Source of the DNA: Thermoanaerobaculia bacterium
Lineage (GTDB): Bacteria > Acidobacteriota > Thermoanaerobaculia > Gp7-AA8
NCBI GenBank assembly: GCA_035525215.1
Contig: DATLEY010000088.1
Coordinates: forward strand, 8,159-72,158
Direction of reading: 5' to 3'
Length of the DNA stretch: 64,000 bases
A model generated the notes under the pieces. It did no database searches, was not told the DNA's origin, and saw only the letters and a program-made list of their open reading frames with translations. The first letter of the stretch is position 1, and each line of letters opens with the position of its first letter. Made by a program: the position numbers and the translations under genes. Positions 16,702-59,888 of the stretch are shown here, piece after piece.

Positions 16702-16932
16702 GAGTCATTCAGAGGCCGCACGGGAGGACGAGCTGGAGAGACGCTTGGTCTCGCGGCCGAAGAATCTCAGAATGCGCAGGCCGTCATCGGGTTCTTGTGC
16801 CGGTGCAGTTGCATCGTACGAACGCATCTGGACGAGAATAAGAATCCGAGATCGATCATCCCGGCTGAGATTCTTCGGCCGCGAGACCAATCGTGGCGGT
16901 ACTTCGTTCTCCCGTGCGGCCTCTGAATGACC
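16702..16932 (+). repeat. nested-palindromic intergenic repeat element, copy A (about 231 bp, MITE/REP-like)
   Basis: Terminal inverted repeats GGTCATTCAGAGGCCGCACGGGAG ... CCCGTGCGGCCTCTGAATGACC. Inner inverted repeats GGTCTCGCGGCCGAAGAATCTCAGAATGCG ... CTGAGATTCTTCGGCCGCGAGACC. Near-identical to copies at 31563, 52278 and 59660. Confidence 0.9.
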
Positions 16933-16986
16933 CGCCCGTTTTGCCTACGACGGCCGGGCCCCGGCGTCAACGCTCAGGCCGCGTCT

Positions 16987-17526
16987 CTACGCCTCCGTCG
17001 CCGGTTCGCTGACGGCGACGCTGCCCGACATCCGGTCGGCCAGACTGCGGCGCTCGCCGAAAAGAGCGGGAAGGAATCCGATGCCCGCGGTGGCGAGAGA
17101 GAGCAGGGTTCCCAGCCATCGGCGGGCGGCTGCTGGCACATCGACCGGCGAGCCGTCCTCGCTCACGATCGAGTGCTCGAAGATCGTCGCGCCGATGGTC
17201 CTTCCCCAGATCAGCCAGCATCCGGCGAAGTACACGAACGAGAGGAGCAGCAGGAACGCAATCAACGCGATCGAGGGAACGGGCTCGTCGATCAGTGAGG
17301 CCATCACCGAGGAGCGCTGCGGGAGAAGGGGACTGAGTGCGAGAAAGAGGGCGATGAAGAGGGAGACGTCGGTGATGAATCCGAGGCTTCGCCGGAGAAT
17401 CGGCGCCGGCACGATCTCCTGCGGAGCGGCGACCGGCAACTCGCCGGGCGGATCGTCGGAGATTGGAGAGTGATCGCTTCCCGGCGTCGGCTCGGGGATC
17501 AGCTCGATCTCATCGAAGCGGGGCAC
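16987..17526 (-). CDS. RDD-family membrane protein
   Basis: 179 aa. Pro-rich N-terminus, then three TM helices, with conserved R/D/D positions (RRSLGFITD ... AGCWLIWGRT ... ERRSLADR). Confidence 0.5.
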   Translation of the reverse strand: MPRFDEIELIPEPTPGSDHSPISDDPPGELPVAAPQEIVPAPILRRSLGFITDVSLFIALFLALSPLLPQRSSVMASLIDEPVPSIALIAFLLLLSFVYFAGCWLIWGRTIGATIFEHSIVSEDGSPVDVPAAARRWLGTLLSLATAGIGFLPALFGERRSLADRMSGSVAVSEPATEA

Positions 17527-17545
17527 GATCTCCTCGGATCCGGGG

Positions 17546-19831
17546 TCATTGTCTCGGCTGCAGATACTTCACGAAGATGCGGTAGAGGAGGTCCTTGCTG
17601 GTTGTTTCGTAGCGAATCGCCAGCTCGCGCGCCCGCCTGGCCAGGGCGTCGTCGGGATTGGTGGCCAAAACCTGATCGAACGCCGCGACCGCATCGGTCA
17701 GCCGCTCCTCCTGCAGTGCTCTGACGCCGATGTTGAAACGAGCCCGGTCGATGAGCTGGCGCGCATTCACATTATCGGGATTCTCCGCGAGAAGTGCTTC
17801 GGCGGCGGCGATGGACTCGGTGTAATTGCCGCTCTTGAGCAGATTCGCCGCATCCTCGAGACGGGCGGCATGAGCGATGGCGCGCTGATAAACCGACTGT
17901 ACATCCGGTGGGAGCTGCTGAATGGACGCCGCCTGCTCGAAGGCCGCGCGCGCTGTGACGTAGTCGTTCGCAAGGAAAGCCTGGCGTCCTTTTTCGATCT
18001 GCTCCTGGAAGACCTCCGCCGCGGGACGCCCGGCGATCGTCCCCGCCCCGGCGGCCTTTCTCGATTTGAGATCCGCGACGTAGGCGAGCGCGTCGTCGTG
18101 ACGGGGATGATCGAGGGGAACCGCGAGAAGCATGGCGATGGCCTGATCGATCTGTCCCCGTTCCACCATCTGCTGGGCGCGGGCAACCGGATCATCGCGG
18201 AGCGCGGCGGAATCGCCCGAGTCGGAGAGAAAGATCTTCCACGCCGCCAACCCGAGGCCCAGCAGGACGACGAGCCCGATCGCTCCGAAGATCAGGGTTT
18301 TGGAGCGTCCGCCCGAAGCGGCCGCAACGGGACGGGTCTTCGAGTCGACCTCGTCGTCATCCTGCGGAGGCCGGCGAGCCTCGCCGGGGGTAGGGGGCAC
18401 GAGGACTTCCTCGGACATCCCTCCTGACGGCTCGTCGAGAAAGAGCGCCTCATCGAAGGGGTGCGAGCCGCCGGAGGGTCTCGCGGCCGCTGTCGCCGGA
18501 GCGGCAGCAATGCCCCCTGCAGGCATCAGGTCGATCTCGGCGAGACGCTCCATGGCCGCGGCGTTGGCCGGGTCGAGCTCCAGAATTTTCTGATTCGCCT
18601 TACGAGCGCCAGCGGCGTCGCCGCGCTGCATGAGCAAGGTGGCTTCTTCGGAGAGATCGTCGACATGAGCGTCGATCTCCATCTTCCGGAGTCGCGCTTT
18701 CTCGATTCTTTGCGAAGCCTGATCGTTCGTGACGTCGATGAGAAAAATGCGTGACCAGACATCGATCGCCTTCTGATACTCCTGCCTCTTGACCGCCTCG
18801 TCGCCCTGTCGGAGATAGTCCTCGATGCGCGACCGATCCTCGCTGGAGAGATCGACCGAGCCGGCTGCAAAATCGAACGTGTCTCCGCTTGCCTGCTCCG
18901 CAGCCTCTTGAGCCGTGGCGCCACCGAATCCGTGAAGCCCGGGGGACGTCTTTCCGATCGTGATCTGCGGACCCTCGTCCTTGTCCTCTTCGAATGTGAA
19001 TCCGAAGTCCGAAGCCGGTGCCGCCGACCTTCCTCCCTCGGCCGGGGAGCTCTGACCGGAGTCCACGACGAAAGAGTCGGAAGTCGAGAAGCCCGATGGG
19101 TCCGGGCCCGTCGGTTTTTCGGTGTGGTCGGCACTGAAGGATCCGAAGTCGAACTCCGGCGCAGCCGGTGACGCCGGCGTCCCGGCCGGAGAATTGTCGG
19201 TACCGAACGAGGCGAAGGGATCGAACGAGGGGGAGGGTGGCGGCGCCGATGCGGACTGATCGGCTTCGCGTCCGAGGCGCTCGATCTCGGGATGATCGGG
19301 ATCGAGAGCTCGGGCCTTTTCGAGGATGGTGCGAGCTCCGGCCGTGTTGCCGTTCTCGATGGCGGTCCGGGCTTTCACGAGAAACTGTTGAATGAATGGC
19401 TCGGCCTCGATCCGCTCGCTCGCTTCCTCCGCGATCCGCTGCGCTTCCTCGTTGGTCATGTCCGCGCGGAGCACCGCGGAGGCGAGATCGGCCGCGCGCT
19501 GGAACTGCCTGGCAGCAAAGGCGGCCCGCGCTTCCCCGAGACCCCCGCTGCCGGATCCTGTTCCCGTCGCACCCCCGGCCGGCTGGATCCGAAGATCGCG
19601 AACGTCGATCGGCGCGCCCGGATCGTTCGCTTTCTGCAGCAGCTGTTTGGCGGGACCGAACTGCGGATCCATCTTCAGAACGAACTCGCAGCCAACCACG
19701 ACGTCGTCGAGGAGGCCCTGGTCGTAGAGGTCGAGCGTCTGGCTGAAGGTCGTGAGGACGCGTTGCTTGACGTCATCCGCCAGGGAAGAGTTGCCGGGGT
19801 ATCCATTCGTCACAGAATCGCTCCTTGGCAC
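17546..19831 (-). CDS. large TPR-repeat protein with central TM helix and Pro/Ser/Gly-rich low-complexity regions
   Basis: 761 aa. Multiple TPR-like units (e.g. AIENGNTAGARTILEKARALDPDHPE, AGARKANQKILELDPANAAAMERLAEI, AVAAFDQVLATNPDDALARRA). Single TM helix TLIFGAIGLVVLLGLGLAAWKIF. Contains FDFGSF-type repeats. Confidence 0.7.
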   Translation of the reverse strand: MPRSDSVTNGYPGNSSLADDVKQRVLTTFSQTLDLYDQGLLDDVVVGCEFVLKMDPQFGPAKQLLQKANDPGAPIDVRDLRIQPAGGATGTGSGSGGLGEARAAFAARQFQRAADLASAVLRADMTNEEAQRIAEEASERIEAEPFIQQFLVKARTAIENGNTAGARTILEKARALDPDHPEIERLGREADQSASAPPPSPSFDPFASFGTDNSPAGTPASPAAPEFDFGSFSADHTEKPTGPDPSGFSTSDSFVVDSGQSSPAEGGRSAAPASDFGFTFEEDKDEGPQITIGKTSPGLHGFGGATAQEAAEQASGDTFDFAAGSVDLSSEDRSRIEDYLRQGDEAVKRQEYQKAIDVWSRIFLIDVTNDQASQRIEKARLRKMEIDAHVDDLSEEATLLMQRGDAAGARKANQKILELDPANAAAMERLAEIDLMPAGGIAAAPATAAARPSGGSHPFDEALFLDEPSGGMSEEVLVPPTPGEARRPPQDDDEVDSKTRPVAAASGGRSKTLIFGAIGLVVLLGLGLAAWKIFLSDSGDSAALRDDPVARAQQMVERGQIDQAIAMLLAVPLDHPRHDDALAYVADLKSRKAAGAGTIAGRPAAEVFQEQIEKGRQAFLANDYVTARAAFEQAASIQQLPPDVQSVYQRAIAHAARLEDAANLLKSGNYTESIAAAEALLAENPDNVNARQLIDRARFNIGVRALQEERLTDAVAAFDQVLATNPDDALARRARELAIRYETTSKDLLYRIFVKYLQPRQ

Positions 19832-20006
19832 CGTGGGCGTCCCTCACGGTGTGCGCATATCCATCCACGCGCGAGCCTCGGCTCGCGGTGTCGGCAGGTT
19901 TCGAGAGTTCGATGGAAATGCAGGCTGAGCTGAATTATAACAAAGCGCCTCGCCGGAAGCCGGGGGGTCCGGACGGCGAAATCGACGGGGTTTCGGAGGT
20001 TGATTC

Positions 20007-20384
20007 ATGGATTTTCTCGCAACTCCTGGCGCGCCGGCTGCGATCGGCCCCTATTCGCAGGCCGTTCGATCCGGTCGGATGATCTTCACCTCGGGGCAGA
20101 TTCCGCTCGATCCCGAGACGGGGGAGCTGGTCACGTCCGATTTCGATGCGATGACCCGTCGTGTATTCGAGAATCTCAAGGCGGTTCTCGCGAGCGGGGG
20201 GGCATCCTTCAGCAACGTGGTCAAGGCTACTGTCTTTCTCGAGTCGATGTCGGACTTCCAGCAGCTCAATGCGATCTACGCCGAATATTTCGGCGATCAC
20301 AAGCCTGCTCGGAGCACGGTCGCCGTCTCCCAGCTCCCGAAAGGAGCCAGGGTCGAGATCGATCTCATCGCGATCGTGGAGTGA
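20007..20384 (+). CDS. ridA: RidA/YjgF-family reactive enamine/imine deaminase
   Basis: 125 aa. Contains APAAIGPYSQAV ... GQIPLDPETGELV ... ARSTVAVSQLPKGARVEID. Full-length match to the YjgF/RidA family pattern. Confidence 0.85.
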   Translation: MDFLATPGAPAAIGPYSQAVRSGRMIFTSGQIPLDPETGELVTSDFDAMTRRVFENLKAVLASGGASFSNVVKATVFLESMSDFQQLNAIYAEYFGDHKPARSTVAVSQLPKGARVEIDLIAIVE

Positions 20385-20609
20385 TCAATTGGGAAATCGC
20401 TGACCGCGCCGTGGGCGGAGGTGCGAGGGCCTGGCTCTCAGGCTCGTCAGTCCTCGGAGTTTATTTCGATGTAAATGCATCAAAGTAATGGCCTTAGGTC
20501 TCGCGAAGGAGAGGGACGCGTTCGGGATGGAAAGGGCGGCGATTTTGGCGTCGCGATTGCTAATGTCAGATAACATCATTCCGGCTCAATCGCCGGCGGA
20601 TGACCCTGA

Positions 20610-21875
20610 ATGCGCAAACTCCTCTTTCCAGCTCTCCTGGTGGCCTTACTGACCCCCCTGCAGGCAGAGGGAGCCGTGCGTTTGACATACGAACTGGATC
20701 GCGGGACGACCGAGGTGAGTTGGCCGGCCACTGCCTTCCCGATTCCCGTCGCGATCAACCGCGCGGCGGCCCAGAACCTCCCTGCAGGTGAAGCATTGAT
20801 CCGCGGGGCGTTCGACTCCTGGGAGGGGGTCGAAGCGAGCGTCGTCGCTTTCCGCCACACGGGACTCACGGATGCGAAAGCTGGGCGCGATGGCATCAAC
20901 GTCGTCGCGATCAATGACTCGCTCTTCGAGACCAGCGGCTTTCTCGCCTATACGACGACCTGGTTCGACGACAAGACCGGCCAGATGCGCGAGGTCGACA
21001 TTCAGATCGACTCCTCCGTGACGAAGAAAGGCGTGGGGCTTCAGACCCTGATTCAGCACGAAATTGGTCATCTTCTCGGCTTCGATCACTCCGGAGTCAT
21101 CTCCTCGGTGATGTATCCCTGGGTGGGCCCGGACGATGCGGGAGGGTTCGACAGTGACGACAGGATCGGCTTGAGCGCAGCGTACCCGGCGGCGGGCAAG
21201 CTCGCGAAGCCCTCGCTTCGGGGCGAGGTTCGCTTGCCGGGTGGCGGGGTCTTCGGCGCACAGGTCGTGGCCATGGACGCGCACGGCGCCGTTTCTTCGG
21301 CGCTCACGCGAAAGGACGGATCGTTCGAGATTCTCGGTCTCCCGCCGGGGACGTACCGCCTCTACGCCGAGCCGCTGGACGGCCCGGTGAAAGGGAGCGA
21401 CCTGTCGGGCATCTGGCGGTCAGGCACGGAGACCGGCTTCCGCACGGCGTTCAGCGACCCGATCGAAGTCGGCCTGGAGAGTGAGATCGATGGGATCTCG
21501 CTCTCGGTGACCAACCTTCCCTCGGATTTGAATCCGCGGTGGGTTTCAGCGTTCGCTCCAGGATCGAGCTCGATCCGGATGAGCAGCAACGCCGTGACGG
21601 TCAAGGCGGGTAGCCGCGTGTCGATTGCCGTCGGGGGAGATGGTTTCGTCAGCGGGCTCACCGAGTTCGAGGTGCTGAACCTGGCGTTCAGACGCGTCTC
21701 CGAGTTCACGTACGCCACGAATTTCATGCACGCGGAATTCGAGATCGCCCCGACCGCGAAGAGCTGCTCCGCCGTAATCGTCGCGCGAAATGGAAGCGAC
21801 TCGGCGGCGCTCACGGGCGCGCTCCGGGTCGCCGAAGCGAGTGCGGGCGGGCGAGGTCGCGCGGTCCGGCGCTGA
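20610..21875 (+). CDS. secreted zinc metalloprotease, matrixin/metzincin-like, with C-terminal beta-sandwich (CarboxypepD_reg-like) domains
   Basis: Signal peptide MRKLLFPALLVALLTPLQAEG. Zinc motif HEIGHLLGFDHSGVISSVMY (HExxHxxGxxH plus Met-turn). Downstream GSFEILGLPPGTYRLYA. Confidence 0.75.
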   Translation: MRKLLFPALLVALLTPLQAEGAVRLTYELDRGTTEVSWPATAFPIPVAINRAAAQNLPAGEALIRGAFDSWEGVEASVVAFRHTGLTDAKAGRDGINVVAINDSLFETSGFLAYTTTWFDDKTGQMREVDIQIDSSVTKKGVGLQTLIQHEIGHLLGFDHSGVISSVMYPWVGPDDAGGFDSDDRIGLSAAYPAAGKLAKPSLRGEVRLPGGGVFGAQVVAMDAHGAVSSALTRKDGSFEILGLPPGTYRLYAEPLDGPVKGSDLSGIWRSGTETGFRTAFSDPIEVGLESEIDGISLSVTNLPSDLNPRWVSAFAPGSSSIRMSSNAVTVKAGSRVSIAVGGDGFVSGLTEFEVLNLAFRRVSEFTYATNFMHAEFEIAPTAKSCSAVIVARNGSDSAALTGALRVAEASAGGRGRAVRR

Positions 21876-21887
21876 TATCTGGGGGAT

Positions 21888-23084: not shown

Positions 23085-23088
23085 GCCG

Positions 23089-29948: not shown

Positions 29949-29973
29949 AGGGTAGAGGAGCGAGGGAAGAGGG
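29949..29973. repeat. purine-rich GGGTAGAGGAGCGAGGGAAGAGGGA motif flanking repeat copy B
   Basis: The same motif occurs at 52228-52259 and, inverted, at 52547-52587. A related GAGGAGAGGAAGAGGGTGGAGAC occurs at 58883-58908. Confidence 0.6.
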
Positions 29974-30018
29974 AAAAACAGATCCCAAGCTCGTAGCGGC
30001 ATATCGCGTGCGGGTGGG

Positions 30019-30249
30019 GGTCATTCAGAGGCCGCACGCGCCAGTCGCGCAGAACACCCAATGGTGCCGCGGCCGAAGAATCTCAGCCGCGATGATCGCT
30101 GTCGGGTCCTTATACACGTCCAGATGCGTTCTTACGATGCGGGTGCGCAGGCACAAGAACCCGATGACGGTTTGCGCATTCTGAGATTCTTCGGCCGCGA
30201 GACCAATCACTCCGCGACTTCGGTCTCGCCGTGCGGCCTCTGAATGACC
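30019..30249 (-). repeat. nested-palindromic repeat element, copy B (core in inverted orientation)
   Basis: Same terminal inverted repeats as copy A. The core GCGGCCGAAGAATCTCAGCCGCGATGATCGCTGTCGGG... is the reverse complement of the cores of copies A, C, E and F. Confidence 0.9.
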
Positions 30250-30282
30250 CGCCGTCCCCGCGGGCATCGAGGCCCCGTGTAG

Positions 30283-31449
30283 TTAGGTCCCAACCGCCTT
30301 CATGGCGATCGCGTAGACCTCTCGCAGCGGGATGTTCTCGCGGCGGGCGATCTCGGCGCACGATTCAAACTCGGGGGAGAAGATCTGCCTCTCCTGCCAG
30401 CGGCTCTTCTTGAACCGGACCGGTCCAAGCGGGGTTTCCACCGTCACGATTTCCCGTTCGAGCTCGATCCGCTGCATCGGAACAAAGCGAAGTCCGATGG
30501 TGCTGGTCTCCGCAAAGATGGTGGCGACAATTCGATCCTTTTCTTCGGGCCGGGCCAGCACGGCGACGAGAGTCCCGGGGCGATTCTTCTTCATCTGCAC
30601 CGACTCAAACGTGACGTCGAGAGCGCCGCTGTCGAACAGCCGTTCCATCGTCCATCCGAGGATCTCGGGGGTGAGGTCGTCGATCTGGAACTCGATGGCG
30701 ACGACGTCCGAAACCCGAGAAGCCCCACCCTCGGCGCCCCAGAGCGCGCGCACCGCATTCGCGAAACGCTTCACATCCCGGGCACCGAGTCCGTATCCGA
30801 CTTTTTCCAGCGTCATTGGCGGCTGGGGTCCGAACGCGGTGACGTACTCCCGGAGAATCAGGGCACCGGTCGGCGTGCAGTACTCTCCCTGCAGATCGAG
30901 CTGGAAGATCGGAACACCAAGCAGCAGGTCCGCGGTCGCCGGTGCCGGAATCGGAATCGAGCCGTGACGGGTCTCCACGCGGCCGCTCCCGACGTGAACC
31001 GCGGAAGCCATCACCCGATCGGGAGCGAGATTCTCCATCGCCACGGCGACTCCGACGATGTCGACGATCGAATCGATGGCGCCGACCTCGTGAAGGTGCA
31101 CTTTCTCCACCGGCAGGCCATGAATCTTCGCCTCCGATTCACAAATCCGCTTAAACATCGAAATGCTTCTGCGCTCGGCCTCGGATGAGAGGCCGCGGTC
31201 CTTGACCAGTGTGATGAGGTCGTGGAGATTGCGGTGGACTCGCTTCTCGTCTTCGTGAATCTTCACGTCGAAGCGCGTGCCTGAGATTCCCGCCCGGGTC
31301 GCTCGCGAGATCCCGATCTCGTAGCCATCGAAAGGAAGCTTCGCGAGCTCGCGCCGGATCAGGTCCGGGTCGACACCGAGCTCGATCAGTGCGGCGATCG
31401 TCATGTCACCGGCGATTCCGGCCGTGCAGTCGAGATAGAGGAGCGTCAT
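30283..31449 (-). CDS. larC: LarC-family nickel-pincer cofactor biosynthesis protein (DUF111, nickel insertase)
   Basis: N-terminal LYLDCTAGIAGDM signature of the DUF111/LarC family, 388 aa. No larA, larB or larE is nearby. Confidence 0.8.
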   Translation of the reverse strand: MTLLYLDCTAGIAGDMTIAALIELGVDPDLIRRELAKLPFDGYEIGISRATRAGISGTRFDVKIHEDEKRVHRNLHDLITLVKDRGLSSEAERRSISMFKRICESEAKIHGLPVEKVHLHEVGAIDSIVDIVGVAVAMENLAPDRVMASAVHVGSGRVETRHGSIPIPAPATADLLLGVPIFQLDLQGEYCTPTGALILREYVTAFGPQPPMTLEKVGYGLGARDVKRFANAVRALWGAEGGASRVSDVVAIEFQIDDLTPEILGWTMERLFDSGALDVTFESVQMKKNRPGTLVAVLARPEEKDRIVATIFAETSTIGLRFVPMQRIELEREIVTVETPLGPVRFKKSRWQERQIFSPEFESCAEIARRENIPLREVYAIAMKAVGT

Positions 31450-31562
31450 TGCGGGAAGAGTACAACGGCGGGGGCCTCGGCTCCGTCGAGGAGGCGAGAA
31501 AGATTTCTAGGAGACCAGGGGCGGACGTCGCAGGGAAAGGGTTGCACGGAACGGCCGGGGGG

Positions 31563-31794
31563 GGGTCATTCAGAGGCCGCACGGGAGGACGAGGTTGAGA
31601 GACGATTGGTCTCGCGGCCGAAGAATCTCAGAATGCGCAGGCCGCCATCGGGTTCTTGTGCCGGTGCACTCGCGTCGTACGATCGCGTCTGGACGTGCGT
31701 AAGAATCCGACAGCGACCATCGCATTCTGAGATTCTTCGGCCGCAGCACCATCTCATATTCTGCGCCGGTGTCCCGTGCGGCCTCTGAATGACC
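31563..31794 (+). repeat. nested-palindromic repeat element, copy C
   Basis: Full-length copy. It starts 9 nt after the stop of the GT-C gene (minus strand) and lies 114 nt upstream of the larC start. Confidence 0.9.
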
Positions 31795-31803
31795 CCCGCG
31801 CGG

Positions 31804-33129
31804 CTACGAGTTTTCCGCTCTGATTTCCGGGATGTTCTCTGGAAACTTCGTCGCCACGACATGGTAGAGAAGCGCCCCAATGAATGCCGCCGCCACCGCC
31901 ATGCTGATGTTCTTCCCCACCAGCCCGTGCGCTGGCTCTCCCCAGAAGGCGGTAAACGGATCCGTCGCGGCACAAAAATTCACGATGAAGCCGGACAGGA
32001 ACAATCCGAAGAAGAGTGGCTTCGTCCCCCGTAATGAGTAGAAGAAGGCTACGAGCGGCACGGCGAGTGCTGGCAGCGCCGGCAGGAGCAAACGCGTAGC
32101 ATAGGAGGAGCCGCCCCGCCAATCGACCCACGCTGCCGTGAGTGCGAAGTACGAGAAGAAGGCGATCGCTGCGCTGATGCGCAAGCTGTTTGGAATCCTC
32201 CCACCCCGCAGCCAGCCCGTCGATCCAATCGCGAGCAGCGGGGCGAACCAGAGGAGTCCGTGCGCAGGATCGAAGATCAGCCCAGCCGCCCCGCCGACGG
32301 GATCACCGACGGTGAACGTCTGGAATGTCGAAAAGGGGGTTCCAACCAGAAGGTAATTTTTCCCAGCGAATAGAAGGGCAAAAAATAAGGGGCCAATCGC
32401 GAGCACGGCAGATTTGCGAATGCCCAGTTCACGGATGCATCCGAAGACGATTGCGAACACAAGGAGAAGAGCCGTTTCCTTCATCGCAATGGTCAGTCCC
32501 AGAAAAAAAGAGGCGAGAATCATCCGATTGCTCACGATGCAGACAACACTGAAGACCGCGAATGACCATGTGAAGGGCTCGGTGAAGAATGTCCGGCTGT
32601 AAAACCAAAGCGGTGATCCGAAGTAGACGCAGAGAGTGATCAGAGCGGCATCGCGCATGGTTTCCGTGACCGTGCAGAGCAGTCGCCAAAAAAGCACCAG
32701 CCCGGCGAAAGTCACGACCAGAGTGAGAGCGCCCAGCAAAGCGTCGGGGGCGCTGCCCGGATTGATGCGCTGATTCACCGCGATCAAGGGCGCCGCAAGA
32801 AACGGAAGCCCGAGTGGATGCGCGAAGACTTCCGCGTCCTCGATCCGGCGGACGTGGCGGTCGAGTCGCTTGCCAGCTGCCTTCTTGCCGGCAATGTTCG
32901 ATCCCGCTTGAACGTCGTCATAGTCATCCCGAAGGTCAACGTCACGGTCGACGCCAAGGGAGTGTGCCATCAGGGCGTAGTGAGGCTCGTCACCGCCGAC
33001 CAAAGAGGGGCGATTCGCGAATGGTAGCAAATGGAACAAGAAGAGCACGAGGAGCCAGGGACGCAGTCCTCGAATCGACGCAGTCGACGGTAGAGTCATT
33101 TCTCGACTCGCAATCGTAGAGTATGTCAA
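31804..33129 (-). CDS. polytopic membrane protein, putative GT-C-fold glycosyltransferase
   Basis: 441 aa, about 11-13 TM helices. An acidic motif GGDEPHYA sits in the first extracytoplasmic loop, as in ArnT/PMT-like enzymes. Assignment is by architecture only. Confidence 0.45.
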   Translation of the reverse strand: MTYSTIASREMTLPSTASIRGLRPWLLVLFLFHLLPFANRPSLVGGDEPHYALMAHSLGVDRDVDLRDDYDDVQAGSNIAGKKAAGKRLDRHVRRIEDAEVFAHPLGLPFLAAPLIAVNQRINPGSAPDALLGALTLVVTFAGLVLFWRLLCTVTETMRDAALITLCVYFGSPLWFYSRTFFTEPFTWSFAVFSVVCIVSNRMILASFFLGLTIAMKETALLLVFAIVFGCIRELGIRKSAVLAIGPLFFALLFAGKNYLLVGTPFSTFQTFTVGDPVGGAAGLIFDPAHGLLWFAPLLAIGSTGWLRGGRIPNSLRISAAIAFFSYFALTAAWVDWRGGSSYATRLLLPALPALAVPLVAFFYSLRGTKPLFFGLFLSGFIVNFCAATDPFTAFWGEPAHGLVGKNISMAVAAAFIGALLYHVVATKFPENIPEIRAENS

Positions 33130-46603: not shown

Positions 46604-46670
46604 GTCAGATTCTTCGGCCGCGAGACCAATCGTCTCGCCACTTCGGTCCCCCGTGCGGCCTCTGAATGAC
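46604..46670 (+). repeat. partial (right-half) copy D of the nested-palindromic repeat element
   Basis: GTCAGATTCTTCGGCCGCGAGACCAATCGTCTCGCCACTTCGGTCCCCCGTGCGGCCTCTGAATGAC matches the right inner inverted repeat plus the right terminal inverted repeat of copy A. The left half is absent. Confidence 0.8.
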
Positions 46671-48087: not shown

Positions 48088-48097
48088 AGGAGAGCTC

Positions 48098-52223: not shown

Positions 52224-52227
52224 GGCA

Positions 52228-52259
52228 GGGAAGAGGGTAGACGAGCGAGGGAAGAGGGA
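52228..52259. repeat. purine-rich GGGAAGAGGGTAGACGAGCGAGGGAAGAGGGA motif immediately 3' of the sugar transferase stop, flanking repeat copy E
   Basis: See 29949-29973. An inverted partner lies at 52547-52587. Confidence 0.6.
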
Positions 52260-52277
52260 GATCGAGCGGGGGAGGCG

Positions 52278-52508
52278 GGTCATTCAGAGGCCGCACGGGA
52301 GACCGGAGTGGCGGGAAGAATGGTCTCGCGGCCGAAGAATCTCAGAATGCGTAGACCGTTGTCGGATTCTTGTGCCGGTGCACTCGCATCCTAGGAACGC
52401 GTCTGTACGTGTATAAGAACCCGACAGCGATCATCGCGGCTGAGATTCTTCGGCCGCGACGCCCAGCTCATATTCTGCCCGGCTGACGCGTGCGGCCTCT
52501 GAATGACC
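52278..52508 (+). repeat. nested-palindromic repeat element, copy E
   Basis: Full-length copy between the convergent sugar-transferase (+) and hemL (-) genes. Both flanks carry the purine-rich motif in inverted orientation. Confidence 0.9.
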
Positions 52509-52546
52509 CACCACCCTCACGCCTTCTGCCTGCGAACGCCGCCTCT

Positions 52547-52587
52547 CCCTCTCCCCTCGCTCCTCTACCCTCTTCCCTGAACTTCCC
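52547..52587. repeat. inverted copy of the purine-rich motif (CCCTCTCCCCTCGCTCCTCTACCCTCTTCCCTG), immediately 3' of the hemL stop on the minus strand
   Basis: Its reverse complement is CAGGGAAGAGGGTAGAGGAGCGAGGGGAGAGGG. Confidence 0.6.
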
Positions 52588-53886: not shown

Positions 53887-53939
53887 CGCCGGCGGATTAT
53901 ACGGGTCCGCGCGATTCGGCTTTCGCCCTGCGGCGGATC

Positions 53940-54887: not shown

Positions 54888-55601
54888 CTACCAGCTCATG
54901 AAATCGCCGGATCGCTCCGGCTGGGGGAGCTCCGTCACCACCGGTCGTTCGTCGATGAGACGTCCGCCTTCGAGCCGGAGCGTTCGTTTGCCGGCCGCGC
55001 GGATGAGAGTCTCATCGTGGGTGGCCAGGAGCACGGTGGATCCTCGGACGTTCGCATCGAGAAAAATCTGGAGGATCTCCCGGGAGAGCTCGGGATCCAG
55101 ATTCCCGGTCGGCTCATCGGCGACGAGAACACGGGGGTCGTTGATCAGCGCGCGAGCGATGGCTACACGCTGCTGCTCGCCGCCCGACAGCTGCCGGGGA
55201 TAGGAATTGAGCTTCTGCTGCAGATTGACAGCGCGCAGTACCGCATACGCTTTTCTTTTCTGTTCCTTCGCGGGAGTTCCGAGGATGGTCATCACGAAGG
55301 CGAGGTTCTCGAGAACGGTCATCCGGTCGAGCAGCTTGAAGTCCTGGAAGACCATGCCGACCTCGCGGCGGAAGAAGGGAAGGTGGGCGCGCTTCATCGC
55401 GGCGAGATTCCGGCCGTTCACGACGATCTGTCCCTCGCTCGGGACGAGTTGGCGCAGCACCAGTTTGAGGAGGGTCGATTTACCCGCGCCCGAGGGACCG
55501 GTCAGAAAGACGAACTCCCCCTTCTCGATCTGGACGTTCACGTCCCTCAGCGCTACGTTCTCACGATCGAACCGCTTGGTGACGTGATAGAAGTGAATCA
55601 C
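54888..55601 (-). CDS. ftsE: cell division ATP-binding protein FtsE
   Basis: Walker [13 protein letters not shown] signature [14 protein letters not shown] and Walker [13 protein letters not shown]. The GTG start at 55601 gives 237 aa. The listed ORF extends further upstream. Confidence 0.9.
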
Positions 55602-55765
55602 GGGAACGATGATAACGCGGCGGGGCTGTGGTTGTGGCGCCGGCCTCCGGCCGGTTGGCGTGAAGAGTGGCGGGCGGCGTCCCGCCGCCCAGCCCCGATC
55701 CAGGAACGGCGGGCTCACGCACCCTGTCTGCTGAAAGCCGGCGCCCCGGAGAAGCGCTCACACAG

Positions 55766-56578
55766 TCAGATCGCTTCGACGATCCGCTTCATCAATCCGA
55801 CGAACTGCTTCTCGACGCGCGCGGTCGTCTCCAGCACCTCCGCGTGAGTCAGCTTCTGCGGGAGGATCCCGGCAGCCATGTTCGTGATGCAGGAAATCCC
55901 GAGCACGGGGATCTGCATGTGCGAGAAGGCGATCGCTTCAGGGACGGTCGACATCCCCGTGGCGTCCGCACCGAGGATCCTGAAGGCGCGGATCTCGGCG
56001 GGGGTCTCATAGGCGGGACCGGGGAGCCCGGCGTAGACCCCTACCTGCAGCTCGATTCCCTCCGCCGCGGCAGCCTGCCTTGCGATGGCGCGGAGCGCCT
56101 CCGGATAGACCGCGGTCATGTCGGGAAACCGGGCTCCGAGCTCGTCGAGATTCTTTCCTCGGAGAGGGTGGCTTTCGAAAAAATTCAGATGATCGCTGAT
56201 CAGCATCAGGTCGCCGGCGGAGAACGATGCATTGATGCCCCCGGCCGCATTCGTGATGACCGCGGTGCCGATGCCGAGGCGTCCCAGGACCCGCGGAAGG
56301 AAGACGACCTCCGGCATCTCGAACCCTTCGTAGTAGTGAACGCGTCCCTGCATCACCGCCAGCTGGGTCCCCCCGATCGTTCCGAAGACGAGCTTTCCCG
56401 AGTGTCCGGTGACACTGGAGACCGGAGCGCCGGGGATCTCGCTGTAGCGGACGGCCGTCGGATTTTCGACAGCATCGGCGAAGGCTCCGAGGCCGGAACC
56501 GAGAATGACGCCGATGGACGGGCGGAGATCGGTGCGCGTGCGGAGAAACGCAACGGCGCGGTCGATACGGTCGAGCAT
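55766..56578 (-). CDS. punA: purine nucleoside phosphorylase (PNP/MTAP family I)
   Basis: Contains IGVILGSGLG, the HSGKLVFG-type phosphate-binding region and GMSTVPE. Confidence 0.8.
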   Translation of the reverse strand: MLDRIDRAVAFLRTRTDLRPSIGVILGSGLGAFADAVENPTAVRYSEIPGAPVSSVTGHSGKLVFGTIGGTQLAVMQGRVHYYEGFEMPEVVFLPRVLGRLGIGTAVITNAAGGINASFSAGDLMLISDHLNFFESHPLRGKNLDELGARFPDMTAVYPEALRAIARQAAAAEGIELQVGVYAGLPGPAYETPAEIRAFRILGADATGMSTVPEAIAFSHMQIPVLGISCITNMAAGILPQKLTHAEVLETTARVEKQFVGLMKRIVEAI

Positions 56579-56595
56579 GGCGCGGGATTATTGCA

Positions 56596-56756
56596 CTGTG
56601 CCGCCGGCTGGCGCGCGAAGCGCGCTTCATCCGAAGATTTTCGCGGGGGTGGGGGCTGGGCGGCGAGACGCCGCCCGCCACTCTGTACCGCCGGCTTGCA
56701 CGGCCTGAGAGCCCGCGCGCTTCGCGCGCCTTACCGGCCGGAGGCCGGCGGTACAG
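56596..56756. other. GC-rich inverted-duplication / hairpin array between the rluD stop and punA start
   Basis: CTGTGCCGCCGGC...GGCGCGCGAAGCGCGC (56596-56625) is partly repeated at 56683-56695. It is present inverted as GCGCGCTTCGCGCGCC...GCCGGCGGTACAG (56715-56756). The sub-hairpins CCGGCCGGAGGCCGG and GCGCGCTTCGCGCGC are also present. Confidence 0.7.
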
Positions 56757-56761
56757 TAGCT

Positions 56762-57733
56762 TCAGCTCGCCTCGGGGTCGATTCTCGAGCCGATGGCCGC
56801 GAGCAAGGCTCGAAAGTCCTCCGGGAGAGGCGCGCTGACGGTCATGGCGGCGCCGGTTCGCGGATGCGGAAAGGAGAGCCGCCGTGCATGCAGGGCCTGC
56901 CGCGGAAACGAGGCGATGGCCTTCTGAATCTTCTTGTCGGGAATTCCACGCCATTGCGGTCCTGAGTACGCCGGGTCGCCGACGATCGGATGTCCCAGGC
57001 TCTTCAAATGAACCCGGATCTGATGCGTCCTGCCGGTTTTCAGGGTGCAGCGAAGGAGAGCGAGGTAGCGCATCGCTTCGATCGTCTCGTACTCGGTGTG
57101 GGCCCTGCGGCCCGTGGAAACGACCGCCATCCGCTTCCGGTCTCGCGGATCGCGTCCGATGGATCCCTCGATGGAGCCTCGAGAGGGAACGGGGGCGCCG
57201 TAGACCAGTGCGAGGTACGACTTGGTGACCTGGTCGCCGTTCCAGACCGCCGTGAGAGCGCGATGCGCCGCGTCGTTCTTCGCGATGATGACGACCCCGC
57301 TGGTGTCCTTGTCGAGCCGGTGGACGATTCCCGGGCGGAGCTCGCCACCGACACCGCTGAGATCGCCGAGCCGGTACAGAAGGGCGTTGACCAGCGTCCC
57401 GTCTGCATGGCCCGCGGCCGGATGCATGACCAGGCCTGGCGGCTTGTCGATGACCGCGAGATCCTCATCCTCGAACAGGAGGGTCAGAGGAATGTCCTGA
57501 GGGGGGAGGCCTGCGGCGGAGGGGGGAGGGATGGAGACCTCGACCTCGTCGCCCGCCGAGAGGGTCGAGGACTTCCGATCGCAGATGCGCCCGAAGATTG
57601 CAACGCGGCCTTCTTCGATCAGCCTCACCAGTTGATTGCGGCTCCGGCCCGGCAGGAGGAAAACGAGAACCTGGTCGAGGCGCTTTCCGTCATACTCGGC
57701 AGGAATCACAAAATGGTGAATCTCGGGCTCCAC
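56762..57733 (-). CDS. rluD: 23S rRNA pseudouridine synthase, RluD subfamily
   Basis: S4-like N-terminus (RLDQVLVFLLPGRSRNQLVRLIEEGRV) and catalytic motif HRLDKDTSGVVIIAKN. A GTG start at 57733 gives 324 aa. The ORF extends to 57820. Confidence 0.85.
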   Translation of the reverse strand: MEPEIHHFVIPAEYDGKRLDQVLVFLLPGRSRNQLVRLIEEGRVAIFGRICDRKSSTLSAGDEVEVSIPPPSAAGLPPQDIPLTLLFEDEDLAVIDKPPGLVMHPAAGHADGTLVNALLYRLGDLSGVGGELRPGIVHRLDKDTSGVVIIAKNDAAHRALTAVWNGDQVTKSYLALVYGAPVPSRGSIEGSIGRDPRDRKRMAVVSTGRRAHTEYETIEAMRYLALLRCTLKTGRTHQIRVHLKSLGHPIVGDPAYSGPQWRGIPDKKIQKAIASFPRQALHARRLSFPHPRTGAAMTVSAPLPEDFRALLAAIGSRIDPEAS

Positions 57734-57864
57734 TTCCGGCGGAGTATAACGGCGGGAACCGCCGTTCTCGCTGGAGCGGACGTTGTCGCATACAATGTGC
57801 GGTACGCGGTAGACGACCACGGGGCCGTTCGTCGATTACCGGAATTCAAAAGCAAGGGGAAAAC

Positions 57865-58800
57865 ATGAAGAGTAAATTTTCGGTCGCCACCGCGCTGATG
57901 CTCCTGATGGCCACCTCCGCGATGGCCAGCGCCTTCCGGGCCGGCGACGTGGTTTACCTGCCGGCAGCGGGAAAGGCCGCGGGCGCCGCAGGGTCGTTCT
58001 TCCGCACTGACGTCTGGATCTCCAACCTGAGCAATGCAAACGTCGACGTCTGGATCGCGTTCGGCGCCCGCGGCGCCGACAACAGCGGCTCTCCTGCCGC
58101 GGCCATCAAACTGGCGACGCCGCTGGCTCCCAACGAGCGCCGCGAGATCCTCGACATCATGCAGCTCGTCTTCGGTCAGTCGGACCTCGATCCTGCGCGC
58201 GTCGGCCACATGATCTTCTTTTCGTGCCGGGTCGGCGGCAACTGCTCCGACTGCGACACCAACTCGACGGACTGCCTTCCCATCACCGTGGAAGCGCGCA
58301 TTTTCACGACGAGCGCGAGCGGGACTTTCGGTCAGCTCATCCCCGGGATTCCCTGGTACAACTACGTTTCCCCCGATGCGGCCGATCGCCAGCTCCACAA
58401 AGTCTTCATCGTCGGTATTCGCCAGGACCCGGTGAACTTCCGCACCAACATCGGTCTGGTCAACGCCTCCCAGTTCTCCAGCGCCTCGCTTTCGGTGAAG
58501 CTGTTCCAGTCGAACGGCACCCAGTTCGGCAATACCTTTTTCCAGACCCTTCCGCCACTGGGGACAATCCAGCCCAACGTCGGCTCGATGTTCCCCGGAT
58601 TTTCGGGAACGGGAGCCTGGGTCGAGATCGAACAGGCACCCCTCACCAGCGGGAGCGATCCCGGCTTCTTGGCCTATGGCTCGCTGCTCGATAATCGCAG
58701 CAACGATCCGACGTACCTCGAGAGCCAGTACACGCAGCAGATGGATTTCGATTGTGTCTACGGCGCCAAACCAGAGCGCCGGCTCGTGCGACGCCAGTAA
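57865..58800 (+). CDS. secreted hypothetical protein (signal peptide, Cys-containing, N-x-S/T-rich)
   Basis: ATG at 57865 with an AAGGGGA Shine-Dalgarno upstream. Signal peptide MKSKFSVATALMLLMATSAMASA. Five Cys residues. No recognisable family. Confidence 0.5.
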   Translation: MKSKFSVATALMLLMATSAMASAFRAGDVVYLPAAGKAAGAAGSFFRTDVWISNLSNANVDVWIAFGARGADNSGSPAAAIKLATPLAPNERREILDIMQLVFGQSDLDPARVGHMIFFSCRVGGNCSDCDTNSTDCLPITVEARIFTTSASGTFGQLIPGIPWYNYVSPDAADRQLHKVFIVGIRQDPVNFRTNIGLVNASQFSSASLSVKLFQSNGTQFGNTFFQTLPPLGTIQPNVGSMFPGFSGTGAWVEIEQAPLTSGSDPGFLAYGSLLDNRSNDPTYLESQYTQQMDFDCVYGAKPERRLVRRQ

Positions 58801-58828
58801 GACAAGGATTCGGAGATTTGCCGCAAAA

Positions 58829-58862
58829 AGCCGGGCCGCACCTTTGGGTGCGGCCCTTTTCA
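58829..58862 (+). terminator. rho-independent terminator
   Basis: Perfect stem GGGCCGCACC / GGGTGCGGCCC with a TTT loop, followed by TTTTCA, 30 nt after the stop of the secreted protein. Confidence 0.8.
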
Positions 58863-58901
58863 TGGCCACGACTCTGCAGAGGAGGGGAGGAGAGGAAGAG
58901 G

Positions 58902-59582
58902 GTGGAGACTCAAAAAGGGAAAGAGCGCCGGTTCCAGCGGCTCCGCTTCGAGCAGCCGCTGGCTGCGCAGTTCGGGTCCGTCGAAACGGAGGTGCTCGAC
59001 CTCTCCCTCCAGGGCGCCCGCCTGGTCCACCTCCAACCTCTTCAGGCCGGCCGGGAAGCCGACCTGCGGTTTCGTCTGATCGACCGGGAGATCGTGGTTC
59101 GGTCCCTGGTTCTCCGCTGCAAGCTGGAGACTCCGGCGGTCGGGGCGAAGGGCAATCTTTACGCCTCCGGGATCCAGTTCACAGGCTCGGCCGGACCCTT
59201 GCGCGAGGTCATCGCCGAGCGGGTCCTCCATGCACTCGAGGAGCAGGTCGCGAACAAGAGGGGAGACTTCATTCCGCTGGCGGACCGGATGACGATCTTC
59301 CGCTCCGAGGATGTCCTTTCCCTGAAAGTCCCGCCGGGGCAGCAGCATGCCTTTCGTCCTCCGGGGGATGAGTTCGTATTGTGCACGCCCAGCGAGCGGG
59401 GATGGCGGCAGGTCCGGACCCGGGAGCAGCGTCAGCCTCTCGACGGATTCACGGTCTCCGGGTTGGAGGATCCCGCTCACATCGAGCTTCTCTGCGCGAC
59501 CTACCGGAAGTCCGACGAGGAGATGCGGAAGATGATCCGGATGCTCGCTGAGATCAGCGTCGGGATGGCCCAGGGGGTGTGA
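58902..59582 (+). CDS. PilZ-domain protein (putative c-di-GMP receptor)
   Basis: Contains RRFQRLRF (RxxxR) and DLSLQGARL (DxSxxG) PilZ signatures. GTG at 58902 preceded by a purine-rich GGAGGGGAGGAGAGGAAGAGG. Confidence 0.5.
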   Translation: METQKGKERRFQRLRFEQPLAAQFGSVETEVLDLSLQGARLVHLQPLQAGREADLRFRLIDREIVVRSLVLRCKLETPAVGAKGNLYASGIQFTGSAGPLREVIAERVLHALEEQVANKRGDFIPLADRMTIFRSEDVLSLKVPPGQQHAFRPPGDEFVLCTPSERGWRQVRTREQRQPLDGFTVSGLEDPAHIELLCATYRKSDEEMRKMIRMLAEISVGMAQGV

Positions 59583-59659
59583 TTCCGGGGGCCCGGCGCA
59601 ACCGGCGAGGGGGGCTCTGGAGGACCCCGGACCCGGCTGTCAGCGAGGAAGGCAGAGGG

Positions 59660-59888
59660 GGTCATTCTGAGGCCGCACGGGAGACCGCAGTGGCGGTAGG
59701 ATTGGTCTCGCGGCCGAAGAATCTCAGAATGCGCAGGCCGTCCTCGGGTTCTTATGGCGGTGCACTCGCATCGTACGAAGGCGTCTGGACGTGTGCAAGA
59801 ACCCGACAACGATCATCGCGGCTGAGATTCTTCGGCCGCGAGGCCATCTCATATTCTGCGCGGCTGGCGCGTGCGGCCTCTGAATGAC
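59660..59888 (+). repeat. nested-palindromic repeat element, copy F
   Basis: Full-length copy between PilZ (+) and rimP (+). It has a TCATTCtGAGG variant in the left terminal inverted repeat. Confidence 0.9.

Follow-up and report, generated by a model that had tools for sequence, protein, structure and literature searches.

A palindromic repeat family in the window

What are the palindromes of ~230 bp that lie between genes in this stretch of Thermoanaerobaculia DNA (64 kb, here called the window): insertions of a mobile element, structures kept by the host at gene 3′ ends, or repeats of the REP type? The window holds five full copies and one 63-nt solitary unit, and a repeat search recovered the family as both direct and inverted repeats; all six positions given in a preliminary description were borne out, and the family is real. 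For both the 19-mer outer box GTCATTCAGAGGCCGCACG and the 18-mer inner box GCGGCCGAAGAATCTCAG, the window has 11 occurrences where chance predicts 0.01-0.03. Mean column identity among copies is 87-88% and pairwise identity is 78-90%. A profile search of the window with nhmmer revealed no copies beyond these, and no ORF conserved across copies was found. The tally stands at 5.5 copies in 64 kb, with two more in DATKCA01 contigs, and assemblies break at the elements. The features in the window are as follows.

16656..16701, +, extension of copy A: GATGACCATCGAGCACGAAAAGCGTGGCGGCG plus G-rich linker
16699..16935, +, copy A, full doublet: units 16704-16766 (+) and 16869-16931 (-), core 16767-16868
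29950..29974, +, purine-rich flank module of heptamers GGGTAGAGGAGCGAGGGAAGAGGGA, beside copy B
30016..30252, - (forward orientation), copy B, full doublet: units 30020-30082 (+, type 2) and 30185-30248 (-, type 1)
31560..31797, +, copy C, full doublet: units 31565-31627 (+, type 1) and 31731-31793 (-, type 2)
31797..31813, -, type-2-side extension of copy C: AAACTCGTAGCCGCGCG
46608..46670, -, solitary 63-nt unit with type-1 spacer, 57 nt past the aroF stop codon (46551)
52235-52259 (+) and 52546-52570 (-), further occurrences of the purine-rich flank module, around copy D
52275..52511, +, copy D, full doublet: units 52279-52341 (+) and 52444-52507 (-)
59657..59892, +, copy E, full doublet: units 59661-59723 (+, TCT variant) and 59826-59888 (-)
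59889..59918, -, type-2-side extension of copy E: 13-nt G-rich linker, AAACTTGCATCGGCGCGAACCGTGAGGGGT

Every full copy folds into a single ~110-bp hairpin (dG -153 to -164 kcal/mol, z -12 to -15.5), in keeping with the one long hairpin of 110+ bp first proposed for the family. The mirror symmetry claimed for its halves fails in four of the five copies, where the arms carry different spacers (type 1 versus type 2), which gives the element an orientation. Copy B had been described as having an inverted core; it is inverted, but as a whole element and not in the core alone. What had been taken for a half copy at 46604-46670 turned out to be the complete solitary unit listed above.

Every arm consists of a single 63-nt unit, GTCAT-TCA-GA-(long hairpin)-GA-AGA-ATC, with an inner hairpin of 44 nt. 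Each arm also has a second conserved box in its interior, which makes four conserved boxes per element, and two units face each other across a ~105-nt core to form the ~230-bp palindrome. The general pattern, GTCAT-NNN-GA-(G...hairpin...C)-GA-N'N'N'-ATC, fits 11/11 window arms as well as arms in loci L004, L006, L029, L031 and L033, and is built from a short outer stem, two tandem G.A pairs and an inner hairpin that is free in length and sequence. Copy ends carry GGGGGTCATTCAGAGG. On the type-2-spacer side, a conserved extension lies outside the terminal repeat, consisting of CTCGCAGCGGCGC and a G-rich linker, and the family has a few discrete linker types: spacers 1a, 1b and 2, the G-rich linker (0, 13 or 50 nt long) and additional flank modules. 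Copy A is a chimera, with type-1 spacers on both arms and a core in the opposite orientation to that of its L031 ortholog; its extension module also adjoins the type-2 arm in L004 and L006 and is mostly absent from the L031 ortholog, as an indel. The extension of copy C overlaps the end of the upstream GT-C-like ORF, taking in its final codons and its stop codon (31804-31806).

A compact form of the unit in other genomes

The unit measures 63 nt in the Thermoanaerobaculia clade versus 26-34 nt in most genomes. A scan of metagenomic viral contigs placed the compact unit at 120 or more loci, on contigs of 30-66% G+C, and it was also found in the MAG loci L017 and L018 and on plasmids of Planktothrix, Calothrix, Oscillatoria, Hymenobacter, Granulicella and Phocaeicola, the plasmid hosts being cyanobacteria, Bacteroidota and Acidobacteriota. 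Its stems covary: seven different complementary outer triplets were seen, and the outer triplets are complementary in 29/38 unconstrained units, versus an average of 14 (maximum 22) in shuffles. The pair closing the inner hairpin is G-C in 98/104 compact units, and the next pair is C-G in 43, G-C in 20 and T-A in 5. Paired units are arranged head-to-head in 51 cases, versus 16 tail-to-tail and 19 direct. Among the matches listed, 189/228 units lie outside long ORFs, at a median of 40 nt past the stop codon, and the gene junctions that hold units are convergent in 23 cases and divergent in 5.

Judged by this common pattern, each window arm is an enlarged member of a hairpin-unit superfamily that crosses phyla, and the window family is an enlarged doublet restricted to one Thermoanaerobaculia clade. 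The novelty claimed for the family holds in part: the ~230-bp repeat had no match in Rfam, in the plasmid and phage collections or in the literature searched, but it is not isolated, as its arms belong to this widespread superfamily. Since the compact unit occurs across bacterial phyla and viral contigs, the element would be of the REP/REPIN type and not a wholly new kind.

Orthologous copies and their age

Related genomes from sample ERZ1758434, at 84-89% identity to the window in coding DNA, carry orthologous copies at sites A, B and C; the L029 counterpart of copy C, which occupies the same site, matches it at 81% identity with a single gap. When orthologous copies are aligned, 143/148 positions of the four boxes agree, as against 66-73% identity over the remainder of the element and 37-44% in the flanking intergenic DNA, which has many indels. 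Fourfold-degenerate sites are 73.5% identical (274/373), and the element outside the boxes drifts at about the neutral rate. The core is flipped in the site A orthologs, and spacer subtypes are swapped in those of sites B and C. The family is absent from sister genera; in distant relatives, beyond alignment, the batD/larC site is empty in L027 and the DUF420/RDD site is empty in L034 and L035. Neither a transposition event nor a precise empty site was captured among the relatives compared. The copies are old residents shared by related species and not recent insertions.

A proposed REPIN-like repeat

Our preferred reading, to which we give a probability of about 45%, is that the element is a REPIN-like, non-autonomous head-to-head doublet whose hairpin units are recognised by a putative trans-acting enzyme. 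REPINs consist of two inverted REPs, each with a short palindrome, and a variable spacer between them; the REPs are conserved, and the elements are extragenic and persist over millions of years (10.1101/2021.07.10.451892). The window element likewise has two inverted hairpin units with a less conserved spacer, conserved units and a variable middle, lies outside genes, occurs as singlets and doublets without target-site duplications, persists vertically at orthologous sites and forms an old, diverse copy population. At ~230 bp versus ~100 bp, it is more than double the usual REPIN size. Described REPs carry a GTAG or CGTC tag, whereas the window unit has neither; REPINs go with RAYT transposases, and no RAYT was found for the window element; REP families are usually lineage-specific, whereas the present unit sequence is common to phyla and viral contigs.

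The likeness to REP, BIME and ERIC sequences noted in the preliminary description is apt. BIMEs of E. coli and RIMEs of rhizobia are also mosaics of alternating palindromic units with few discrete linker types, located after genes and between convergent genes, but they have no sequence relationship to the window family, which has a fixed two-unit architecture and a long core; gyrase and IHF are known binders of BIMEs. ERIC/IRU and Correia elements, MITE-like imperfect palindromes of 127-155 bp, share with the window element a long imperfect palindrome in transcribed intergenic regions, the lack of an ORF, size variants and a hairpin that could act on mRNA. They differ in having no sequence similarity to it, the Correia-type TA target duplication is missing from the window element, and nested units are found only in the latter. 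The published description of TIRtrons and TIRYT repeats presents long, partly self-complementary, moderately abundant families that occur as singles, dimers or clusters (Di Nocera et al. 2013, PMC3733652), with TIRYTs being RAYT-like genes flanked by long terminal repeats, one group of them specific to Acidobacteria, and with ends that begin with the G-rich motif GGGGWSAS (PMC3733652). Compared with that description only, the ends of the window element are similar, reading GGGGGTCAT, but GGGGTCAT departs from GGGGWSAS at the last position; the TIRYT repeats described there are tied to RAYT-like tyrosine transposases, whereas no TIRYT gene was found with the window element.

If the element is REPIN-like, the inner hairpin would have been enlarged in this Thermoanaerobaculia clade to give the 63-nt unit. 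An enzyme whose gene lies elsewhere in the genome may recognise the conserved foot of the unit hairpin in single-stranded DNA; the most plausible type is an HUH/tyrosine transposase (RAYT, TIRYT or IS200-like), which would copy or move units and doublets without target-site duplications, and insertions would survive solely in DNA directly downstream of genes. Long vertical inheritance would follow, with the four recognition boxes nearly unchanged and the remainder drifting almost neutrally, and recombination between arms could yield the flipped cores and swapped spacers. As transcribed 3′ UTR, either strand is predicted to form the ~110-bp hairpin, which probably hinders read-through and 3′-to-5′ RNA decay at convergent junctions.

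Placement at gene 3′ ends and a possible host function

The conservation of the boxes between orthologs could equally reflect host function. We weighed a structural element that the host keeps for its use at gene 3′ ends, with mobility absent or long extinct, and consider it doubtful; such an element might separate convergent transcripts as a barrier or insulator, protect the 3′ ends of mRNAs or offer binding sites to a DNA- or RNA-binding protein that reads the four boxes. Every copy is intergenic and near a gene 3′ end, in agreement with what was first reported. Copy B lies between the convergent genes batD and larC, copy C between the 3′ end of the GT-C-like gene and the start of larC, copy D between the convergent sugar-transferase gene and hemL, and copy E between the PilZ gene and the rimP leader. 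Three copies do sit between convergent genes; only one of the four such junctions in the window lacks a copy, its gap being just 12 nt, and this pattern favours a host role. The distance initially given, within 9-80 nt of a gene 3′ end, does not apply to batD, which is 102 nt from copy B; the end of larC is 33 nt from the other side of this copy. Persistence at orthologous sites, with boxes nearly identical amid diverged flanks, also fits a host function, and in L034 and L035, which lack the family, the DUF420/RDD gap contains other strong palindromes (-55 and -96 kcal/mol, respectively), so some hairpin is always present there. In addition, folding of the forward strand is favoured over that of the reverse by 2-13 kcal/mol in 7/7 copies, and G.U pairs exceed A.C mismatches 51 to 33.

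Against a host-kept structure, the long hairpin has no covariation (1/78 compensatory pairs, covariation term +0.89), arm-arm complementarity is equal within and between copies (0.70 vs 0.69, p = 0.3), and the drift outside the boxes is close to neutral. The bidirectional terminator suggested earlier has no direct support: compensatory evolution is lacking in the long hairpin, and none of the copies fits the hairpin-plus-T-run consensus, although canonical terminators are present elsewhere in the host. No promoter consensus was found in the copies. Within the window, the copies show no consistent orientation with respect to transcription, and in 68 viral cases among the matches listed, the unit is on the same strand as the flanking genes in 35 and on the opposite strand in 33, which is no bias. 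Moreover, the multi-copy spread to unrelated loci, phyla and viral contigs demands a means of spreading anyway.

Mobility and the remaining alternatives

An ordinary MITE, meaning a deletion derivative of an insertion sequence with a DDE transposase that binds its 19-24-bp terminal inverted repeats, was an option raised at the outset and now seems improbable. The terminal inverted repeats are near-perfect (13/14 ends match exactly), the element is small, multi-copy and free of ORFs, it is missing from sister genera, and it breaks short-read assemblies, with L020, L029 and L033 all terminating inside copies. However, no tested boundary has a target-site duplication, at most 3/9 copies sharing even a 2-nt direct repeat (offsets -2 to +15 nt, lengths 2-10 nt), and the ends are blurred by variable-length G and C runs and by the asymmetric extension outside the terminal repeat. 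Unlike transposase-binding terminal repeats, the arm with its second inner box matches a hairpin unit that is also found alone and in compact form, and the copies are old, as diverged as noted above and common to several species. As previously reported, there is no transposase in the window: Pfam scans of ~50 of its ~52 predicted ORFs returned housekeeping genes only, with no transposase, integrase or Y1 (RAYT) domain. The units in L004 and L006 have no mobilising enzyme next to them, and among the 120 viral loci listed no transposase recurs in the neighbourhood of the units. The two RAYT genes whose flanks were inspected, one on a Chloroflexota and one on a Gloeocapsa plasmid, have GTAG-type REPs on their flanks and not the present unit.

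That the units are small non-coding RNA genes or ribozyme-like RNAs, with CUGA and the tandem G.A pairs flanking the hairpin as a functional RNA motif, is very improbable: the unit stems covary strongly, the flanking bases are conserved and the compact unit weakly resembles the C/D-box RNA sR45 below threshold (25 bits vs a gathering score of 40), but strand bias relative to transcription and a promoter consensus are lacking, no Rfam family reaches threshold for the element or the unit, the hammerhead core (CUGANGA) is absent, and doublets hold units in both orientations.

Copy D is nested in an outer purine-rich palindrome, and the purine-rich heptamer module is probably a separate repeat that adjoins the element.

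The repeat family in the window

The family of intergenic repeats proposed in the preliminary description is real, as the positions reported there came up again in a repeat search, with four to five copies in direct orientation and the corresponding inverted pairs. In the window, the outer 19-mer has 11 occurrences and so does the inner 18-mer, where 0.01-0.03 would be expected by chance, and an nhmmer profile built from nine copies found no further members. The members are:

16702-16932, copy A, full doublet of ~230 bp in the DUF420/RDD gap (site A)
30019-30249, copy B, full doublet in the batD/larC gap (site B)
31563-31794, copy C, full doublet in the GT-C-like/larC gap (site C)
52278-52508, copy D, full doublet
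59660-59888, copy E, full doublet
46608-46670, minus strand, solitary 63-nt unit

The five full copies align over ~235 columns with a mean column identity of 87-88%. Pairwise identity had been put at 85-90%, of which the upper end stands, but the measured range is wider (78-90%). Folding gave one long hairpin per copy, as had been supposed, with a dG of -153 to -164 kcal/mol and a z of -12 to -15.5. The gene setting was also borne out, with members at DUF420/RDD, BatD/LarC, the GT-C-like gene, DAHP synthase, sugar transferase/HemL and PilZ/RimP, and the gene starts around the copies were confirmed. Three of the four convergent junctions in the window hold a copy, and the remaining gap measures just 12 nt. 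The original observation is confirmed, and the interpretation attached to it is partly supported.

The larC gene (product 100% identical to the Thermoanaerobaculia MAG protein HUP65042.1) is flanked by copies B and C in inverted orientation (30019-31794), with the type-1 arms of both pointing towards it. On the far side of copy C, the extension of the element (31804-31813) contains the last codons and the stop of the GT-C-like ORF, as it does in the orthologous locus L029, and the C-terminus of this gene appears to be supplied by the element or its extension.

Anatomy of the element and its unit

The two halves had been described as mirror images; instead, the element is asymmetric, with a type-1 spacer (1a or 1b) in the left arm and a type-2 spacer in the right arm, the exception being copy A, which has a type-1 spacer on both arms. 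Beyond the terminal repeat, the type-2 side carries a conserved extension. Each arm follows the pattern GTCAT-TCA-GA-[G GCCGC ...44 nt... GCGGC C]-GA-AGA-ATC, 63 nt in total, and the window holds 11 such units, namely five pairs and one solo. The last had been called a half copy; it is present, but as a complete unit matching the 63-nt pattern and not as half of an element. In general form, the unit reads GTCAT-NNN-GA-[G..C hairpin]-GA-N'N'N'-ATC, where NNN is complementary to N'N'N', and all 11 arms match it with TCA/AGA or TCT/AGA. Paired units stand head-to-head across a core of ~105 nt; the four boxes (outer and inner in each arm) are invariant, and the core and spacers vary. Each arm also has a local fold of its own, formed by ATTC/GAAT and GGCCGC/GCGGCC plus either GAGACC/GGTCTC or CGCCA/TGGCG. 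The 19-nt terminal inverted repeats are exact at 13 of 14 termini. Outside them are runs of G (left) and C (right), inverted and not direct, that are better read as degenerate element ends.

Relatives carrying the large element

Two contigs of the Thermoanaerobaculia MAG DATKCA01 (L004 and L006) carry copies ~90% identical to those of the window. Among the matches listed in a genome-contig scan with the 18-mer, these two and L017 and L018, discussed below, are the relevant ones; most of the other listed loci were rejected as chance matches in coding DNA, such as the FtsZ motif AAEESQ. The large-element family has no member among the viral contigs scanned with the 18-mer outer box or in the plasmid and phage collections. 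In the JGI metagenomes, a 22-mer had no match and the 18-mer outer box had six, all unrelated, and the concatenated translated frames of the element matched none of 5.8 billion predicted proteins. Two contigs of one Isosphaerales MAG (L005 at 3101 and L011 at 448) share near-identical sequence around the 18-mer GCGGCCGAAGAATCTCAG; the outer box is absent from it, and it is apparently a distinct repeat belonging to that MAG. Three short-read contigs of relatives (L020, L029 and L033) terminate inside copies, and short-read assemblies of this soil lineage are interrupted by the repeats, which also seed spurious ORFs.

A compact unit across phyla

Two loci have forms intermediate between the 63-nt unit and a far more compact one. 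L017, from an unclassified bacterium of 42% G+C, holds a ~135-nt doublet whose units measure 45 and 49 nt; L018, from a Binatia MAG, holds a 26-nt unit in which the two boxes are fused, with GGGCGGCC where the hairpin would be. In viral contigs, the pattern GTCATTCWGAG-N4-14-GAAGAATCT occurs at no fewer than 120 loci, on contigs of 30-66% G+C, where by rough estimate a handful would be expected by chance; the commonest compact form among the viral matches listed is GTCATTCTGAGCGNAGCGAAGAATCT. The compact unit also lies, unannotated, on plasmids of Planktothrix, Calothrix, Oscillatoria, Hymenobacter, Granulicella and Phocaeicola.

The stems of the compact unit covary. Outer triplets among the matches listed include TCT/AGA, CCT/AGG, ACT/AGT, TCC/GGA, GCT/AGC, TTT/AAA and GTT/AAC, and they are complementary in 29 of the 38 listed units that the search pattern leaves unfixed, against a shuffle average of 14. 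The inner hairpin, which ranges from GCGAAGC up to stems of 6 bp, has a closing G-C pair in 98 of 104 distinct listed units, followed by C-G, G-C or T-A. Most listed units (189/228) lie outside long ORFs, with a median distance of 40 nt from the preceding stop codon and with 23 at convergent gaps versus 5 at divergent ones, and their orientation relative to the flanking genes has no strand bias (35 same, 33 opposite). Neighbouring units among these matches are head-to-head in 51 cases, tail-to-tail in 16 and direct in 19. Because the arms of the window family fit the compact-unit pattern and head-to-head doublets prevail, we regard that family as an enlarged version of the common doublet.

Eight compact loci compared with Rfam gave nothing at the gathering threshold except one tRNA, and literature searches for sequence strings of the unit returned only primers and unrelated text. 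The viral loci listed have no recurrent neighbour gene beyond phage structural proteins, and no recurring transposase. Some loci are tandem arrays. On plasmid p1 of Planktothrix agardhii PCC7805 (L157, 3790-4095), three tandem doublets with a 93-nt period directly follow the BREX gene pglX, and viral contig L104 (8500-8980) has five tandem doublets of compact units with an 87-nt period; in both, the two units of a doublet differ in their outer stem, ATTCT/AGAAT versus ATCCT/AGGAT. In L017, a ~240-nt tandem repeat bearing the mini-doublet (4050-4376) abuts a masked run of N in the public record.

Likeness to known systems

Intergenic palindromic repeats such as REP, REPIN, BIME, ERIC and MITE are already a known kind, and the window family opens no new category. 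REPINs consist of an inverted pair of hairpin units around a variable middle, also occur as singlets, lie outside genes and lack a target-site duplication, and their old and diverse copy populations persist vertically (10.1101/2021.07.10.451892). The architecture of the window element matches this description: it is made of two inverted units, each holding its own short palindrome, around a less conserved spacer, folds as one hairpin and persists vertically, with sites A, B and C occupied in relatives, and it shares with REPINs the singlet form, the extragenic position, the lack of a target-site duplication and the old, varied set of copies. REPINs are expected at hundreds of copies per genome; the window, with 5.5 copies per 64 kb, would give such a number by extrapolation. 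However, the units start with GTCAT and end with ATC(T), with no conserved GTAG/CTAC or CGTC tag at either end, and the element measures ~230 bp as opposed to ~100 bp. Because of these differences in tag and size, and because no RAYT was found among the ORFs scanned in the window, L004 and L006, we describe the family as working like a REPIN without assigning it to REPINs. The TIRYT-associated repeats described in Acidobacteria (PMC3733652) are another class with which the element is compatible.

Two points make it more than a routine new family. One is the separation of constrained boxes from neutral drift among orthologous copies, described below; the other is that its arms are tied to a hairpin unit that crosses phyla and is apparently undescribed. 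In one survey (PMC11602168), 97.4% of cellular MITEs did not cross genus boundaries; the breadth of the compact unit, unlike that of such genus-bound elements, points to a shared trans-acting partner. The conservation of the unit's foot, the covariation of its stems and the lack of bias relative to transcription favour recognition of the foot as a single-stranded hairpin by such a factor, for which an HUH/tyrosine transposase would be the most economical guess. We tentatively propose, with a probability of about one in four, that the 26-nt unit is the recognition module of an undescribed cross-phylum hairpin system, which could be either a machinery for mobilisation or a hairpin-binding factor of a host or phage, and that the Thermoanaerobaculia elements are an enlarged, long-retained derivative of it and a standard occupant of convergent junctions. 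If so, the system would be at work in Acidobacteriota, Cyanobacteriota, Bacteroidota and other lineages, together with their viruses.

Orthologous sites and a possible host role

Contigs of sample ERZ1758434 orthologous to parts of the window, with coding DNA 84-89% identical, served for comparison. In a relative, site C is occupied in the same orientation by a copy 81% identical with one gap, and the beginning of a copy is present at site B; at site A, copies were found in two lineages. Around the copies, intergenic DNA has an identity of only 37-44%, with many indels, and fourfold-degenerate sites are 73.5% identical (274/373). In orthologous copies, the four boxes are identical at 143 of 148 positions and the remainder of the element at 66-73%, so that outside the boxes the element drifts at about the neutral rate. 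This comparison separates four constrained boxes from neutral drift, and shows the exact bases to mutate.

Orthologs are not mutual closest relatives, as copy C is 80% identical to the copy at site C of L029, which is itself 86% identical to copy D or to that of L004. Moreover, spacer subtypes are exchanged between orthologs at sites B and C, and the core is flipped at site A. Taken together, these features imply recombination or gene conversion, both between arms and from copy to copy, and the exchange between the window and L029 would fit recombination between copies B and C across larC.

A host role at convergent junctions is a serious rival to the REPIN-like reading, with which it could coexist. 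That the boxes are constrained between species speaks for such a role, as does the fact that some hairpin always occupies these convergent gaps: more distant relatives (71-76% protein identity) have the same gene pairs without the element, and their gaps are filled by other palindromes, often tandem heptamers. One of the roles first suggested, that of a bidirectional terminator, found no direct support, as the consensus of a hairpin followed by a T-run was not found although the host has canonical terminators elsewhere in the window (58833-58856 and 60041-60064). In no copy did a consensus scan identify the long hairpin or an arm hairpin as an intrinsic terminator; the nearest T-run lies ~20 nt past the arm with the type-2 spacer, the sole match inside an element, within the copy A core (16864-16846), has a weak stem of 7 bp, and total matches did not exceed the shuffle expectation.

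Tests of mobility

A classical DDE-type MITE is less likely. The window family does have terminal inverted repeats, but no target-site duplication at any boundary offset: no combination of offset and length gave a direct repeat in more than three of nine copies, and those were just 2 nt. A Pfam scan of ~50 window ORFs and 10 ORFs of L004 and L006 found no transposase and no Y1_Tnp domain, and neither the window nor the fetched loci showed a parent insertion sequence with matching ends. A link to RAYTs through plasmids was rejected, since the RAYT homologues whose flanks were read, on two plasmids, are flanked by GTAG REPs and not by the GTCAT...ATC unit. A stem followed by TTTT can be made out in the joined flanks of copy A, and the flanks are complementary in several copies, which prompted the idea of insertion into pre-existing terminator hairpins; it was discarded because flank complementarity scores 6.6 within versus 6.8 between copies (p = 0.63, 9 copies).

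Possible RNA and coding roles

A dedicated RNA gene is unlikely. In every copy, folding is more favourable for the forward strand than for the reverse, by 2-13 kcal/mol, and G.U pairs outnumber A.C mismatches in the hairpins, but because the copies are not independent, this is only a weak hint of strand-specific RNA selection. The 110-bp hairpin gave no sign of compensatory evolution in RNAalifold (1 compensatory pair of 78, positive covariation term), the arms within a copy are no more complementary than those of different copies, and the elements contain no sigma-70 promoter consensus. The window has no Rfam match at the gathering threshold, in agreement with the failure to recognise the element at the outset; matches below the threshold were confined to generic miRNA precursors with long hairpins and, for the compact unit, sR45, a C/D-box RNA. 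A ribozyme, of the hammerhead or another type, was considered and rejected: GA-[stem]-GAA is similar to one part of the hammerhead core, but CUGANGA is missing and Rfam gave no match. A small protein gene was suggested by an RBS-like GGAG with a following ATG within the extension module, and by ORFs of 87-88 aa through copy A and L006; it was also rejected, as the frame differs among copies, L004 is frameshifted, stops are scattered through the other copies and no ORF is conserved.

Other repeats and signals nearby

Short tandem repeats, mostly heptamers and often in palindromic arrangement, directly follow stop codons in this lineage, and resemble the cyanobacterial STRR repeats. Examples are GAACGCA (x4.5), GTGCTGA (x2-4) and, in relatives, CTAGGAC-type arrays; purine-rich AGGGAAG/AGGGTAG heptamers form an outer palindrome around copy D.

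Short tandem repeats in the window and in relatives
969-1036, short tandem repeat
16632-16650, short tandem repeat
29950-29974, short tandem repeat
52235-52259, short tandem repeat
52546-52570, short tandem repeat
L033, L034 and L035, loci in relatives, short tandem repeats
L027 and L028, loci in relatives, 10-mer and 9-mer repeats after stop codons

Between two minus-strand genes, at 56590-56755, lies a G+C-rich palindrome of ~160 nt (dG -112 kcal/mol) that is not a member of the family. Finally, the rimP leader (59972-60081) contains a promoter-like TTGCGC...GATACCAT and, at 60041-60064, a strong terminator ahead of the rimP ATG at 60082. From this arrangement, it looks like a putative attenuator of the rimP-nusA operon, and the stretch is 94.6% identical in the relative locus L032.
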